Source: an uncultured Acidobacteriota bacterium | Lineage (GTDB): Bacteria; Acidobacteriota; Thermoanaerobaculia; UBA5066 | Length of the DNA: 52,066 bases | NCBI GenBank assembly: GCA_937888435.1 | Contig: CALAQS010000288.1 | Span: forward strand, 1-52,066 | Direction of reading: 5' to 3' | In this document: positions 25,234 through 30,346 of the stretch, piece after piece | Layout: every line of letters starts with the position of its first letter | How positions within the stretch are numbered: the stretch's first letter is position 1 | The notes under the pieces: generated by a model | Told to the model about the DNA's origin: nothing | What the model saw: the letters and a program-made list of their open reading frames with translations, nothing else | Databases searched by the model: none | Translations under genes and position numbers: made by a program

Positions 25234-25539
25234 ATGAAAAACGAAAAGAAGGAAACCAGAGGCGGAAACAGAGTCGACGGGGGCTTTTACCTGAACCGGA
25301 AGACGTGGGACCTCGTGACCGTGAACGGAAAGAAGGGCGTCCTCCCCGGGGTGGCGGACGACCTCTATCTGAAAGTTCCGACGCTGGCGATGCTGGCGGC
25401 GGCTCCCGTGCTCGGCGCCACGCTCGTCGTCTTCCTGCCGTTCGTCGGCTTCGTGCTCTTCGCCGTGGCTGGCCTCCGCAAGGTGGCGGGCCTCGACAAG
25501 GCGGCAAAGGCCGCCGAGCCCGCGCGCGAGACCCGCTGA
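25234..25539 (+). CDS. Small membrane protein, paralog 1 (101 aa), uncharacterised family
   Basis: RBS AAGGAGGA upstream. Core GGFYLNRKTWDLVTVNGKKGVLPGVADDLYLKVP followed by a hydrophobic helix-hairpin, LAMLAAAPVLGATLVVFLPFVGFVLFAVAG. Confidence 0.6.
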   Translation: MKNEKKETRGGNRVDGGFYLNRKTWDLVTVNGKKGVLPGVADDLYLKVPTLAMLAAAPVLGATLVVFLPFVGFVLFAVAGLRKVAGLDKAAKAAEPARETR

Positions 25540-25594: not shown

Positions 25595-25891
25595 ATGAAA
25601 CGGTTCGAAGGTAATAGCAGGGCCCCAGGCGGGTTCTATTTCAACCAGAAGAGCTGGGAACTCGTGACCGTGAGCGGGAAGGCCGGCGTCCTGCCCGGGA
25701 CGATCTCCGACCAATACCTGAAGGTGCCGCTTTTCCTCATGCTCCTCGGGGCACCCGTCTTCGGCGCGACGCTCGTGATGTTCCTTCCCTTCGTCGGCAT
25801 CGCGCTGTTCTTTCACGCGATGTTCCGGAAGGCCGTGAAACCGTTCGCGGCGAGGTCGCTGGAGAAGGCGCCGGCGCGCGTGACGCGCTGA
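25595..25891 (+). CDS. Small membrane protein, paralog 2 (98 aa), uncharacterised family
   Basis: RBS AGGAG upstream. Core GGFYFNQKSWELVTVSGKAGVLPGTISDQYLKVP followed by LMLLGAPVFGATLVMFLPFVGIALFF. By manual alignment, about two thirds of the ~60-aa core is identical to paralog 1. Confidence 0.6.
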   Translation: MKRFEGNSRAPGGFYFNQKSWELVTVSGKAGVLPGTISDQYLKVPLFLMLLGAPVFGATLVMFLPFVGIALFFHAMFRKAVKPFAARSLEKAPARVTR

Positions 25892-25903: not shown

Positions 25904-26557
25904 TCAGACTTGAATGATTCCGCGGCGGAGGGCGAAGCGGATGAGCTCGGTTCGCCCGTGGACGCCGAGCTTGCCCATGACGTGCTCGCGGTGGGACATC
26001 GCCGTCTTCACGCCGATGCCGAGCAGCTCGGCGATCTCCTTGTTGCTGCGCCCCTCGGCCACGAGCTTCAGAACCTGCTTCTCGCGGTCGGTGAGCGTCT
26101 CGTACGCATCCACGGTCTGGATGCCGGCGGCCGCAGCCTCACGCTCTTCGAGAGCGACGCGCGCGACCTCGGGAGCGAGCACGAGGCCGCCGCGAACGAC
26201 CGCGCGGATGGCCGAGGCCAGCTCGGCGCCCGCCGCCTTCTTCAGGACATAGCCCGAAACGCCGATCTTGAGGAAGCGCGCGACGTACTCGCGGTCCTCG
26301 TACTGCGTGAGGACGATGATCTTCGTGCGCGGGCAGAGCTTGCGGATCTCGAGCGCGGCCTCGAGACCTCCGAGGTTCGGCATCGCGATGTCGAGGAGAA
26401 GGACGTCGGGGAGGATCTCGACGCAACGATCGATCGCCTGCCGTCCATCCTCGGCCTCGCCCACGACCTCGATGTCGTCCGCTTTCTGGAGGAGAGCCCT
26501 TACGCCTTCGCGCATGAGGGCATGGTCGTCGGCGATCACGACGCGCGTCCTAGGCAT
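25904..26557 (-). CDS. Response regulator, NarL/FixJ (LuxR-type HTH) family
   Basis: REC domain (VVIADDH..., LLLDIAMP, KIIVLT) plus LuxR HTH (LTDREKQVLKLVAEGRSNKEIAELLGIGVKTAMSHREHVMGKLGV). The ATG overlaps the kinase stop by 8 nt (ATGCCTAG). Confidence 0.9.
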   Translation of the reverse strand: MPRTRVVIADDHALMREGVRALLQKADDIEVVGEAEDGRQAIDRCVEILPDVLLLDIAMPNLGGLEAALEIRKLCPRTKIIVLTQYEDREYVARFLKIGVSGYVLKKAAGAELASAIRAVVRGGLVLAPEVARVALEEREAAAAGIQTVDAYETLTDREKQVLKLVAEGRSNKEIAELLGIGVKTAMSHREHVMGKLGVHGRTELIRFALRRGIIQV

Positions 26558-28367
26558 GGAAGACCTCTTTTGGAATCGGAATCTCGAGCGTGATGTGCGC
26601 GCCGTCGCCGGGCGCGGAGTCGAGGCTCATCTTCCCGCCGAGGATCTCCACGCGTTCGCGCATGCCGAGGAGACCGAGGCCGCGGCCTGTCTCCGACGGC
26701 AGCTCGACGCTCTTCGGGTCGAACCCCCGGCCGTCGTCCTCGATCTCGATGAGCAACCGCTTCTCGTCGGCGGCGATCTGCAGGAGGACGTTCTCGGCCT
26801 TCGCGTGGCGGGCCACGTTGAGGAGCGCCTCCTGCACGATCCGGAAGACCGCGGTCGCGACGTCCCTGGGCACGCGGCTCTCGACGTCCTCGAACTCGCA
26901 CCTCACGGCGATGCCGAGCGGCTCGATGTGGCGCGCGGCGTACCAGCGCACGGCGGCCAGGAGGCCGAGGTCGTCGAGGATCGACGGGCGCAGGTCGAAG
27001 ATGACGCGGTGCAGGTCGTCCAGGGCGCGTCCCGCGAGGCCCTTGACCTCCTCGAGGCGCGCGCGTATCCCGCTTTCCGGCAGCTCGCCGAGCGCGCTCT
27101 CGAGGCGGAAGGACAGAGCCACGATGGTCTGGCACGTCTCGTCGTGCAGCTCACGCGCAATGCGCATGCGCTCGCGTTCCTGCGCGCTCAAGAAGCGCTT
27201 GAGCAATTCGGCGCGCCTCTCGTCGCGGTCGCGCAGCTCCGCATAGAGGCGCTGAAGCTCCTGGGTGCGCGCAGCGACGCGCGCTTCGAGCTGCTCGTTG
27301 GCGCTCCGGATCTCGTCGAGCGACGCACCGAGGCGGACGCGCATCGTCTCGAGCGAGCGGCCGAGCCGGCCGACTTCGTCGTCGGGCAGCGGGGGAATCG
27401 GCCGCTCGAGGTCGCCGCTCGTGATGTGCTCGGCGGCGCGGGTGAGGACGAGGAGCGGCCGAAGCACGCTGCGCGCGGCGCCCCACGTGAAAAACGCCGC
27501 GAGCGCGAGAAAGACGGGCGTCAGGGCGAGCATCCGCCGCCGGAAAGCGTATGCGGGCGCGAAGGCGTCGGCCGCCCGTTCACGCACGACGACTCCCCAC
27601 GGGAACAGGTGAAGGGGTGCGAACGCGACGACATCCTCTCCCGCGCGGCCGGCGAACGGCCGCTGGTCGTGAAGGAGCGGCCGGAGGAGCTCGGGAGCGA
27701 CAGAAGGCCTCCGCGCGGGCCCCGTGTCCGTCGTCGCGACGACCTCGCCCGCGGCGTCGACGAGATCGGTCGCGTGGCCCTCGCCGGTTTGCGGGGCTGG
27801 CAGGAGGCTCGCGAAGACCGGCCGGGCGGGATCGAGGCTCGCCCCTGCGATGCCCGTGGTCTTCCCGTCGAGATCCACGAGCGGGACGAAGAGAAAGAGG
27901 CGTTGCGCGCCGTTCGGGAGCGTTGTCAGCGCGGACGCCGCGCGGCGGCCGGTCGCGATCGCCTCTTGGGCCGCCGGCATCGCGATGAGCCGGTCGTCAC
28001 GATGCCCGCCGGCCGGCTCCTCCCACAGGATCTCGCCGGCCGGGCTCAGAAGAAAAACGCTGGAGAACAAACGCGAGCGGCGATAGGTGGCGAGGAGCGC
28101 GGCCCTGCGAGCGGGGCTGTCGGGCTCGACGCCTCCGCCGTAGAGGCCCTCGAGGTCGTCGCGGATGATCTCCTCGACGTGGTCGACGGCGCTGCGGGCG
28201 AGACGCTGCTGGTCGCGCACGACACGGGCGGAGAGGTCGTCGAGGGCACTCATGCTCAGGATCCCGAGGATGACGAGCGGCGTGAGAAGCCCGAGGGCGA
28301 CGAGCAGGAGCGCCCGCGTCTGCAGGGCATTTCGGACCCCGAGGCGCGGATGTCGCTCGCCTCTCAC
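26550..28367 (-). CDS. Sensor histidine kinase, NarX-like (periplasmic Cache-like domain, HAMP, HisKA_3, HATPase_c)
   Basis: 605 aa. TM1 [19 protein letters not shown], a periplasmic region of about 250 aa, then TM2 [23 protein letters not shown] ([28 protein letters not shown]). H-box [18 protein letters not shown]-boxes EDDGRGF and [10 protein letters not shown]. The GTG start overlaps the cytochrome b stop (GTGA). Confidence 0.85.
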
Positions 28368-29113
28368 GGTTTCGGCGGTATTTCCGGCGCGGGAGGCGCA
28401 CTCTCGCCGTGCGCGAGCTCGCCCGGCACGAGCTCACCCGGCACGAGCTCACCGTAGAGCCGGGCGTACTCGAGCGGGTGCTCGTGCCTGAGCCGTTCCT
28501 TGCTGATCTTGCCTGTGAAGATGCTCGCATCGTACGGGAAGATGCCGGGCGCGAGGTGGGCGTTGTAGATGTGCCAGGTGATGACGACGAGGAAGGCCAT
28601 GAGGCCTTCGTTGCTGTGCGCGACCTTCGAAACCGGGATCAGCTCGCCCGGAAAGAAGCGTGTCACGACCATGGGAAAGTAGAGGACGAGGCCGGTCGAG
28701 ATCATGACGAGGCCGCCGAGGACGAGCCCCCAGTACTCGAACTTCTGCCGGTAGTCGAACCGGTCGAACCTCGGCTGCGACTCCACGGCGCCGAGGTCGT
28801 AGCGGAGCTGCTGGACGGCGTCTATGAAGTCCTGGCGGTTCGGCAGCAGCGTGAGCTTCATCTTCCGCTGCGCCGCGAGGATCACGGCTGCGCCGAGATG
28901 CCACAGCGTGAGGAGCGAGAAGACGAGGCCCGAGGCGCGGTGGACGAAGCGCACGTGGTCGAGCCCTCCGAGAACGCTGACGATCCCGCGCGCCCACCCC
29001 GTCTCGAAGAACTTCTGCGGAAAGCCAGTCAACGCGAGGAGAACGAACGTCGTCATGACGACCACGTGCTCGAAGCGCTGCCTCCTCGAAAAGCGAACGG
29101 CGTATTCGGTCAT
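28364..29113 (-). CDS. Membrane b-type cytochrome, FdnI/HydC/PhsC-like (dihaem)
   Basis: ORF 28364..29521 trimmed to ATG 29113, which overlaps the upstream TGA (ATGA). 249 aa with 4-5 TM helices carrying conserved His: [62 protein letters not shown]. Confidence 0.75.
28415..28454 (-). repeat. 15-nt tandem repeat (about 2.6 copies) encoding [13 protein letters not shown] in the cytochrome b C-terminal tail
   Basis: Plus-strand units gagctcgcccggcac, gagctcacccggcac and gagctcacc... are read directly from the sequence. Confidence 0.8.
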
Positions 29114-30168
29114 CTGTTCACCAGCACGCGCCAGAGGTGGAGGAGGATCTGCAGGCAGAGCCCTCCGATGATGAAGGGAATGAAGATCTTGTAGAAAACG
29201 CCGACCGCCCACACGAGAGGGGCCCTCTTCAGGCTCGGTTCGTAGTGCGAGAGCCACGCGGAGGGAAAGTTCTTCGAGGCGCCCACATGGCACTTCGCGC
29301 AGGTCTTCTGGAGGTTCGCCTTCAGCACCTGAGAGTTGCCGTCCCTGGCCTTCGTGATGTCGTGCGTGCCGTGGCAGTCGATGCAGAGCGCCGTGACGAC
29401 CTTCGGCTTCTCGCCGGAGGTGGCCAGCTTCGCGCTCATGCCGTGAAAGTCGGAAAGATACGACGCGAGAACGTTCGTCGAGAGGCCGTACTTGGCCATC
29501 ATCGGCTTGTTCGTGTGGCACTTGGCGCAGAGGTCGATCGTCGTGAGGCGCCAGTCCTTCGTGCGCGGGTCGGCGATGTCGTGCGCATGGTGGCAGTCGG
29601 TACAGACGGGCACGTCCGGATTGCCCGCGGCCAACGCCATGCCATGGACGCTCTTCGCATAGGTCTCGGCCATGTCGCCGTGGCAGGCCCCGCAGGTTTC
29701 GGAGACTCTCGTGCGCGGCACGGTGGGGTGCATGATGTCGTGCGCGCCGTGGCAGTCCACGCAGAAGGGCGCGCTGCCCCCCTTCGCGAGGATCTGGTAA
29801 TGCACGCCGTCGAGCGCTTTCGTGTAGTTCTCGAAGTGGCAGGTCTTGCAGAGATCCTTGAATCCCGCGCTGAAGGCCGCCTTGTCCTTCGCCGTAAGCG
29901 AAGCGTGCGGTACTTCGGTCTGCGCCGGATGGCAGCCCGTGCAGCCCTGCCGCGCGCCGTGGACGGACTTCTCGAAGACGTCTCGCGGCACGTAAAGAGA
30001 CTGCTTCTCACCGCTCGGAAGCGTGACCGACGCGTCCTTTTCGCCGTGGCAGCCCAGGCAGGTTTCGACTTCTTCGTTGCGCGTCGTCGAGGCCTCGGCC
30101 CGCAGGGAAGGTGACCCGGCCAGCGGGATCAAGAGAAGACAGAAAAAGCCCTCCCGGATCGACTTCAA
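29110..30168 (-). CDS. Nonahaem c-type cytochrome, periplasmic with C-terminal membrane anchor
   Basis: Nine CxxCH motifs: CLGCH, CTGCH, CKTCH, CVDCH, CGACH, CTDCH, CAKCH, CIDCH, CAKCH. C-terminal helix [23 protein letters not shown]. The ORF extends to TTG 30222. I prefer TTG 30168, which has GGAGG 7 nt upstream and gives the signal peptide (M)[25 protein letters not shown]. Confidence 0.85.
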
Positions 30169-30346
30169 CGACGCGCCTCCAGCGTCAAACTGAAGGCAAG
30201 GCTCGTTCGTCACAATAATCAAGGCGCACTAGCGAAAGCCATGGAACGAGCGAAACAAGTGGTCCTTCCGGAGACGTTTGCGGTCTGTTGCGCGCGGGAA
30301 AACGTGGGTCGGGGAGTCGCGCCGTCGCCTCGGCCATAATCCGCGC

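Follow-up and report, generated by a model that had tools for sequence, protein, structure and literature searches.

A split CbcL-type cytochrome module linked to a sensor kinase and a response regulator in Acidobacteriota and other phyla

Introduction

CbcL has been published as a protein with a periplasmic nine-haem domain (residues 30-279) that is followed by a six-helix dihaem cytochrome b domain, and all of its haems are described as bis-His coordinated. CbcL oxidises quinol and thereby feeds extracellular electron transfer at low potential, whereas a quinone-reducing role has been proposed for its MtoC relatives. Polypeptides of 416-1034 amino acids (aa) are reported in the largest genomic survey on CbcL, MtoC and MtrH, which makes no mention of regulators. 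The cbcBA cluster of Geobacter sulfurreducens (GSU0593-0598) is induced at low potential via BccR, and the operon holds a second response regulator (GSU0596); in the parts of the literature covered by our search, no sensor upstream of BccR is identified. How metal- and electrode-respiring bacteria sense the potential of their acceptor and choose among the ImcH, CbcL and CbcBA exits is an open question in the field. Here, we analyse a contig of 52,066 nucleotides from an uncultured Acidobacteriota soil bacterium (CALAQS010000288.1, assembly GCA_937888435.1; the whole stretch is referred to as the window), on which the two parts of a CbcL-type protein are encoded by separate genes, cytochrome c and cytochrome b, that are directly followed by genes for a sensor kinase and a response regulator.

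Precedents for the sensing side of such a locus are likewise available. In Escherichia coli, apo-TorC binds and inhibits the kinase TorS. Sensors that carry a c-type haem themselves are known as well, namely the PAS-like GSU0582 and GSU0935 and the recently described DUF3365 sCache_heme family, which senses NO (nitric oxide).

Results

The cytochrome pair corresponds to the two parts of CbcL

The four genes of the locus lie on the minus strand, in the order cytochrome c, cytochrome b, kinase, regulator, and all four open reading frames (ORFs) were found where the initial annotation had placed them:

29110..30168, minus strand: nonahaem c-type cytochrome, 352 aa (CxxCH count, alignment, homology to the CbcL periplasmic domain and first transmembrane (TM) helix)
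28364..29113, minus strand: FdnI/HydC-type cytochrome b, 249 aa (PF01292 and invariant His residues)
26550..28367, minus strand: sensor histidine kinase, 605 aa (TM1, double-Cache-like domain, TM2, HAMP, HisKA_3, HATPase_c)
25904..26557, minus strand: response regulator of the NarL/LuxR class, 217 aa (REC domain and GerE helix-turn-helix)

The first two genes had been proposed to encode the two parts of CbcL as separate, coupled genes. CbcL loci were drawn from Desulfuromonadales genomes using fragments of a published supplementary alignment as bait, and the Geobacter hydrogenophilus orthologue (618 aa, nine CxxCH motifs) served as the CbcL reference. When this orthologue was compared with the joined c and b proteins by BLASTP, a single alignment resulted, which is collinear throughout (228 bits, E=8e-71, 29% identity, 604 columns). 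Within this alignment, the nine CxxCH motifs of c pair one-to-one and in order with those of the orthologue, the anchor helix of c aligns with the TM helix that follows the CbcL c domain, and the His residues of the b domain align as well. The alignment ends at CbcL residue 570 of 618, and the last TM helix of CbcL is without counterpart in the c-b pair. Because the nine haem motifs and the b-haem His residues all align, the pair is a true CbcL homologue, with the division falling after the first TM helix and before the b domain, and the full-length collinear match thus bears out the proposal. The fusion of both domains in one six-TM polypeptide was not found here, where two genes with an ATGA overlap are present instead. 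For annotation, this means that genes labelled 'cytochrome c3 family' and 'cytochrome b' can carry the label split CbcL-type module.

The c protein contains nine CxxCH motifs at residues 37, 76, 107, 136, 159, 189, 214, 262 and 290, a signal-like N-terminus and a hydrophobic helix at residues 328-346, in agreement with the nine motifs, signal peptide and C-terminal TM anchor that had been described for it. An alignment of 18 family members (55-70% identity) shows no exception at any of these motifs and holds exactly nine further invariant His residues (H70, 88, 123, 143, 175, 196, 242, 269 and 308), which speaks against chance as the source of these features. Since nine invariant non-motif His residues are thereby available for nine haems and no variant catalytic motif is present, c shows the pattern expected of an all-bis-His electron wire and would not be a catalytic multihaem enzyme. 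Such enzymes (NrfA, Otr, HAO, MccA) were considered and rejected, as c has only canonical CxxCH motifs, each with an invariant His, and no partner enzyme is encoded nearby. Moreover, the NrfH, NrfB and DmsE models scored far under their cut-offs against c, and no enzyme family was among its PDB matches. The initial annotation had also considered that c might fall into a known enzyme family with a catalytic partner encoded close by; neither was found in the 52-kb window. The matches of c are confined to generic multihaem families (Paired_CXXCH_1, cytochrome c3/c7, MtrC domain), with NCBIfam matches far under the cut-offs. An AlphaFold2 model built from the 18-sequence alignment reached a mean predicted local distance difference test (pLDDT) score of 55.8, which is too poor for fold comparison. 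The family is large: at E<=0.001, 3080 proteins were found in the database, and species-representative genomes contain at least 582 loci. As a separate observation, the C-terminal helix of c (29110-29200, minus strand) is among its best-conserved parts, with the pattern IPFxIGGLxLQxLLHLWRxxVNR and a nearly invariant His344.

The b protein matches PF01292 (Ni_hydr_CYTB) at E=1.6e-12 and the FdnI-gamma model TIGR01583 at E=8.6e-16, the latter under its cut-off, and its only solved relative is FdnI (PDB 1kqf_C, E=5e-4). Across 57 sequences, His16, His58, His72, His166 and His181 show little or no variation, and CbcL has these residues too. Hydropathy analysis indicates three strong TM segments and the His166-His181 helix for b, and one TM segment for c. 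Two further features of b were observed. Beyond the four His residues expected for two b haems, b has a fifth invariant one (His72). At the 3' end of the gene, a 15-bp unit occurs three times in tandem (28409-28453, minus strand; ggtgagctcgtgccg twice, then ggcgagctcgcgcac), which encodes 15 residues of a C-terminal tail that is otherwise rich in Pro and Ala.

The two-component system is linked to the cytochrome pair in several phyla

The order of the four genes in relatives, which the initial annotation had suggested to survey, proved to be conserved in both directions of search and across several phyla. For the forward direction, the four window proteins served to screen the best 80 of at least 582 c loci; for all fetched loci, the positions taken as ORF starts are approximate. 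A same-strand orthologous kinase was present in all assessable loci with a c protein scoring >=340 bits (37/37), and so was the regulator, as opposed to only one of the 14 loci with a more distant c. The order c-b-kinase-regulator was found in Acidobacteriota, in Myxococcota, including the cultured Anaeromyxobacter terrae, and in Nitrospirota. Chloroflexota have the order kinase-regulator-c-b, and the linkage has therefore outlived a rearrangement. The reverse search, which started from the kinase sensor and covers the subgroup of haem-type sensors described below, revealed a c-b pair directly upstream in 28 of 29 assessable loci and added Binatota, Nitrospinota and Methylomirabilota. In contrast, no HisKA_3 kinase or NarL-type regulator was found within ~7 kb of fused CbcL in the Desulfuromonadales loci (n=49, L091-L139). 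These data indicate that the link of kinase and regulator to the c-b pair is not due to chance. The conservation of the package across several phyla makes it probable that this electron route is under direct surveillance or control by the cell.

The coupling of the genes is visible at each junction of the operon. The stop/start overlaps that had been reported to chain the four genes, namely ATGA, GTGA and the 8-nt ATGCCTAG, were read from the sequence: the end of c (...AAC AGA TGA) overlaps the start of b (ATG ACC) by the common ATGA; the end of b (...CCG TGA) overlaps the kinase start (GTG AGA) by the common GTGA, the kinase thus starting with GTG; and the end of the kinase (...CAT GCC TAG) overlaps the ATG start of the regulator (ATG CCT AGG) by 8 nt. 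Translation of c is assigned to the TTG at 30168, with GGAGG just 5' of it; an alternative, longer c ORF from the TTG at 30222 is present and not favoured. Products of 352, 249, 605 and 217 aa were likewise called by independent gene callers on more than 10 independent soil-metagenome contigs and in one metagenome-assembled genome (MAG), all of which encode the identical b protein. Among the relatives, the ATGA junction between c and b occurs in 37 of 51 loci, and the kinase and regulator genes overlap by 1-11 nt in about two-thirds of the loci. Inside the operon, a scan for sigma-70 promoters and terminators detected no promoter-like or terminator-like sites above background.

Several variations of the locus were noted. 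Between b and kinase, 14 loci carry two additional genes, one for an M48/M56 (BlaR1-like) metallopeptidase with a HELAH motif and one for a membrane protein of ~180 aa without a family match (for example L025:9750-11320, L021:9752-11272 and L174:10954-12468). A second, more divergent c'-b' pair adjoins the cluster upstream on the same strand in L034, L161 and L165-L168 and on the opposite strand in L150 and L156; c' has about 430-480 aa and scores 160-190 bits against the window c. In Anaerolineae (L069, L070, L071, L077, L078, L081, L082), the b that follows the nonahaem c carries a long low-complexity fusion at its C-terminus, with several extra CxxCH motifs in L069:9012-11003 and, in L077, a single CxxCH in a different domain instead. 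The Anaerolineae loci with fused b are mostly without kinase and regulator.

A haem motif occurs in many of the orthologous kinases

The kinase contains HAMP, HisKA_3 (PF07730, E=4.3e-13) and HATPase_c (PF02518, E=1.9e-16) domains and a weak match to dCache_1 under the cut-off; the regulator comprises Response_reg (PF00072, E=4.7e-26) and GerE (PF00196, E=3.8e-19). The periplasmic domain of the kinase, of ~240 residues, lies between two TM helices, and its profile matches the double-Cache domains of KinD (4jgq, E=1.9e-4) and PctC (5ltv, E=8.9e-4). Therefore, the description of the kinase as NarX-like holds for its HisKA_3 transmitter class and fails for the sensor, which is a double-Cache domain and not the four-helix bundle of NarX. 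In line with this, the NarX and NarQ models of NCBIfam align with nothing but the transmitter and reach 69 and 76 bits (cut-offs 578 and 553), and the NarL model scores 142 bits against the regulator with a cut-off of 250. A nitrate-sensing NarX was ruled out, as the sensor fold differs.

The comparison of the kinases revealed a CxxCH motif in the periplasmic domain of 16 of the 37 orthologues (L022, L025, L027, L028, L031, L032, L034, L036, L038-L040, L050, L060, L063, L064 and L067; an example is the ORF L025:11317-13218). The motif sits at one fixed position in the membrane-proximal Cache module, on an insert of ~18 residues, and one more kinase (L048) has CxxxCH at the same place. The haem-motif kinases originate from Anaeromyxobacter, Nitrospirota, Chloroflexota, Vicinamibacterales and other Acidobacteriota. 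The window kinase belongs to a haem-less Acidobacteriota group. In a rough neighbour-joining tree, which is without support values, the haem-bearing kinases occupy deep branches in four phyla, with haem-less kinases nested among them. This distribution suggests a putative ancestral haem site that would have been lost several times, among others in the lineage of the window, and the predicted haem-c motif in so many orthologues favours redox sensing in the family. Membership in the DUF3365 Cache_heme family was considered and rejected, since the haem-type orthologue of L025 matches dCache_1 and sCache_3_2 and does not match DUF3365.

A small membrane protein accompanies the cytochromes

Two further genes lie beyond the regulator:

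25595..25891, plus strand: small membrane protein copy 1, 98 aa (unannotated family, syntenic with the c-b module)
25234..25539, plus strand: small membrane protein copy 2, 101 aa (58% identical to copy 1, in tandem upstream of copy 1)

Copy 1 is convergent with the regulator gene and separated from it by a 12-bp gap. No match to the small protein was found in Pfam and NCBIfam, and its homologues in the database carry the annotation 'hypothetical' without exception. With a family profile, the small protein was detected next to the c-b module in 57 loci fetched from other organisms of several phyla, and it was not detected in the fused-CbcL loci. Its position differs between taxa: Acidobacteriota, Binatota and 'delta' lineages have it behind the regulator gene in convergent orientation, and Chloroflexota and Nitrospirota have it immediately upstream of c in the same orientation. 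The latter position is also found in L066 and L075, which have no detectable kinase orthologue, and in L074, which has a divergent opposite-strand kinase only. As the small protein is present in loci devoid of a kinase orthologue, it travels with the cytochromes. A distant member (39% identical) likewise follows the regulator gene convergently, in a cluster of the order c-b-M56-X-kinase-regulator. In the structure prediction (pLDDT 82), a four-strand beta-meander precedes one long TM helix, and a fold comparison of this model with the PDB revealed no significant match (best E-value 0.49). In two loci of Binataceae/'delta' origin (L158:9548-10108 and L159:9533-10198), the small protein is tandem-duplicated in one ORF, with two beta-domain/TM units. 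A widespread, unannotated small membrane protein is hereby flagged as part of the system.

Upstream region and genomic surroundings

The intergenic region between mfd and the cytochrome c gene has a length of 109 bp. Only one stretch of it is conserved in the closest relatives:

30209..30234, minus strand: short conserved element CGCTAGTGCGCCTTGATTATTGTGAC, a candidate promoter or operator (alignment of the relatives' upstream regions)

This 26-bp element is shared by the window, L011 and L012 and has diverged in L013-L015. A sigma-70 consensus was not found in the mfd/cytochrome-c intergenic region.

The window has a G+C content of 69%, and its nearest genome relatives are MAGs of Thermoanaerobaculia (Acidobacteriota). 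On the upstream side, mfd is encoded divergently from the operon, and beyond it lie genes for PpiC/SurA-type rotamases and for an RNase D-like protein. Genes for DUF1345, an RRM protein, DUF4337 and a large thioredoxin-domain protein are found downstream, and at a greater distance there are an MFS transporter, DUF2339 and the dcw cell-wall cluster. The flanks thus consist of housekeeping genes, and the 52-kb window contains no reductase, porin-cytochrome, other multihaem or other extracellular-transfer genes.

Discussion

Taken together, the best-supported reading of this locus, to which we give about an even chance of being correct, is a CbcL-type electron conduit between quinol and the periplasm that is equipped with a dedicated kinase and regulator. 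In such a system, the cytochrome b in the membrane would exchange electrons with the menaquinone pool via its two b haems and pass them on to the membrane-anchored nonahaem c in the periplasm, which would serve as a wire and not as an enzyme and would hand them over to soluble or outer acceptors encoded outside the locus, the direction of electron flow presumably being outward. The two halves of CbcL would operate as separate, translationally coupled polypeptides. The double-Cache/HAMP/HisKA_3 kinase and the NarL-class regulator, predicted to be made from the same transcript, would be dedicated to the conduit, with the kinase reporting the state of the electron path. The regulator may act back on the promoter of the operon, which would render the system autoregulated, and perhaps also on the neighbouring genes for the small membrane protein. 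Where the kinase has a predicted covalent c-haem site, as in roughly half of the orthologous systems, this site could equilibrate with the nonahaem wire; in the haem-less lineage of the window, sensing might proceed via physical contact of the kinase with the cytochromes or the small membrane protein, or via some ligand. We favour a redox signal tied to the cytochromes, because a haem site is present in half of the sensors and no substrate-defining gene is conserved.

Several observations weigh against this interpretation. Start/stop overlaps of 4 nt are common in this genome, and the dcw genes mur, mraY and ftsW of the window overlap likewise; the overlaps indicate an operon, yet they are unremarkable by themselves. 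Moreover, the b and kinase genes overlap in five loci only, four of them Acidobacteriota that include the closest relatives of the window, and the remaining loci have gaps of 3-60 nt or a 1.5-kb insert at this position. The window kinase is devoid of Cys between its TM helices and lacks the ~18-residue haem insert, and direct haem-based redox sensing therefore cannot apply there. A recognisable NarL-type repeat or operator was not found in the aligned upstream regions of close relatives (window, L011-L015), and k-mer enrichment over 54 upstream regions yielded no shared operator motif but only GC-rich words from adjoining coding sequence. In Geobacter, cbcL is constitutively expressed, and regulation is therefore not inherent to CbcL-type proteins. 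Finally, respiratory operons with an adjacent cognate two-component system of their own are common (ttr, tor, mcc), and a plain ligand-controlled arrangement therefore fits the synteny equally well.

Such a conventional, substrate-controlled respiratory branch is possible, though we would sooner doubt it than adopt it. Here, the double-Cache domain would bind a small molecule, such as an electron acceptor, a metal or an organic acid, and the regulator would switch on the c-b quinol dehydrogenase, which would feed a reductase or an extracellular pathway encoded elsewhere, the cytochromes being a regulated output only, with no signal passing from them to the kinase. The sensor profile does match ligand-binding double-Cache domains (KinD, PctC; Pfam dCache_1), and the lack of a haem site in the window kinase, together with the retained synteny of haem-less kinases, is in line with this scheme, as is the response-regulator control of cbcBA. 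However, roughly every second orthologous sensor has the CxxCH motif at a fixed position, which is indicative of a redox or gas signal and not of a metabolite. Across phyla, the operon holds only cytochromes and signalling genes, with no conserved reductase or transporter from which a substrate could be identified, and members of the kinase family practically never occur apart from the c-b pair. In another reading, the cytochrome pair would act mainly as a signalling accessory, a probe that informs the kinase of the redox state of the menaquinone pool or of periplasmic carriers. The result would be a four- or five-component sensor with little respiratory flux, whose regulator has its targets mainly elsewhere in the genome. 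An accessory-accessory-kinase-regulator order in one transcript is typical of kinases with membrane partners (LiaFSR, BceAB-RS, YycFGHI), many of the orthologous kinases have a haem-c motif in the sensor, TorC-TorS is a precedent for a cytochrome that modulates a kinase, the module is kept in Nitrospirota, Binatota and Methylomirabilota, phyla that are not known for extracellular respiration, and no downstream electron-transfer partners are encoded nearby. Nevertheless, we consider this unlikely: the full CbcL architecture has been kept, with nine haems, all b-haem ligands and strong conservation, which goes beyond the needs of a probe. In addition, c-b and the small protein occur in loci that lack the kinase orthologue (L066 and L075) or have it only divergently on the opposite strand (L074), which indicates that the pair has a function of its own, and purely sensory cytochromes are less likely since the pair also occurs without the kinase.

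Only the frequency of start/stop overlaps in this high-GC genome speaks for the notion that kinase and regulator adjoin the cytochromes without functional relation. The synteny in both directions across phyla (37/37 and 28/29) and the persistence of the link despite the rearrangement in Chloroflexota render this explanation highly improbable, and the protein identities of 40-60% among the fetched loci do not suggest a single, recently transferred element. A more far-reaching proposal, which we put forward tentatively and hold to be rather doubtful at present, is that the locus represents a hitherto undescribed, multi-phylum class of redox-potential sensors, in which a CbcL-type pair provides an electrical or physical connection from the menaquinone pool and periplasmic carriers to an ancestrally haem-c Cache kinase. 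The small membrane protein might then be a further subunit of the sensing complex. If this proposal were true, the cell would gauge the performance of its electron sinks and adjust gene expression to it, that is, it would sense electron flux.

A CbcL homologue that is packaged with a full kinase-regulator pair makes the question of how acceptor potential is sensed directly testable. Carriers of the package include many uncultured lineages from soil and groundwater as well as the cultivable Anaeromyxobacter, through which it is experimentally tractable.

Comparison with known systems

With NarX-NarL and NarQ-NarP, the system shares the HisKA_3 kinase core and the REC-GerE regulator; it differs in the sensor, which is a four-helix bundle with a P-box there and a double-Cache domain here. 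The haem-c PAS and Cache sensors have an extracytoplasmic fold with a CxxCH haem, as predicted for about half of the orthologous kinases, but the window kinase is without the motif, and the described families are not reported with a CbcL-type partner. The TorS-TorC pair is a parallel to the contact considered here: a multihaem c-type cytochrome that belongs to a respiratory chain and is anchored in the membrane binds to its cognate kinase, at the periplasmic domain, and modulates it. However, TorC is a pentahaem cytochrome of the NapC/NirT type, and TorS has a helical-bundle sensor and requires TorT with trimethylamine N-oxide. The tor regulatory genes are not known to be co-transcribed with torCAD.

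Closer to the cytochrome pair itself are the split 'Cbc-like' pairs of Carboxydocella thermautotrophica, in which a gene for a TM dihaem b adjoins one for a multihaem c with one TM segment, and which have been interpreted as a CbcL homologue. Compared by description only, they differ in that no two-component system is reported and the organism is Gram-positive. CbcBA, likewise compared by description only, shares the split bc-type inner-membrane cytochrome, with a dihaem b and a multihaem c that has a C-terminal TM anchor, and the presence of a response-regulator gene in the operon; cbcBA is controlled by a dedicated response regulator that answers to a falling redox potential. In contrast to the seven haems of CbcA, the order b then c and the sigma-54 enhancer-binding regulators of that system, the locus described here has nine haems, the order c then b, a regulator of the NarL class and a complete Cache kinase in the same operon. 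To our knowledge, no cognate kinase has been identified for the CbcBA regulators.

CbcL (GSU0274, Geobacter sulfurreducens), which belongs with MtoC and MtrH to a family of inner-membrane quinol oxidases/quinone reductases, agrees with the window pair in the nine-haem all-bis-His c domain, the TM helix and the FdnI/HydC-type dihaem b, which are collinear over ~570 residues. The locus is set apart from CbcL by having two polypeptides with an ATGA overlap and not one, by the missing extra C-terminal TM helix and by an identity of 29%. Furthermore, it contains a kinase and a regulator, which are not found near fused CbcL, and the small membrane protein, which is absent from the fused-CbcL loci. 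We encountered no account in the searchable literature of a CbcL-type module with an attached two-component system, or of the kinase and small-protein families treated here. Hence, the statement of the initial annotation that no such case had been described stands for CbcL-type modules, but has to be qualified in view of CbcBA with GSU0596 and BccR as a close precedent. The building blocks of the locus are all known, and CbcBA-BccR is the conceptual precedent that comes close to their combination.

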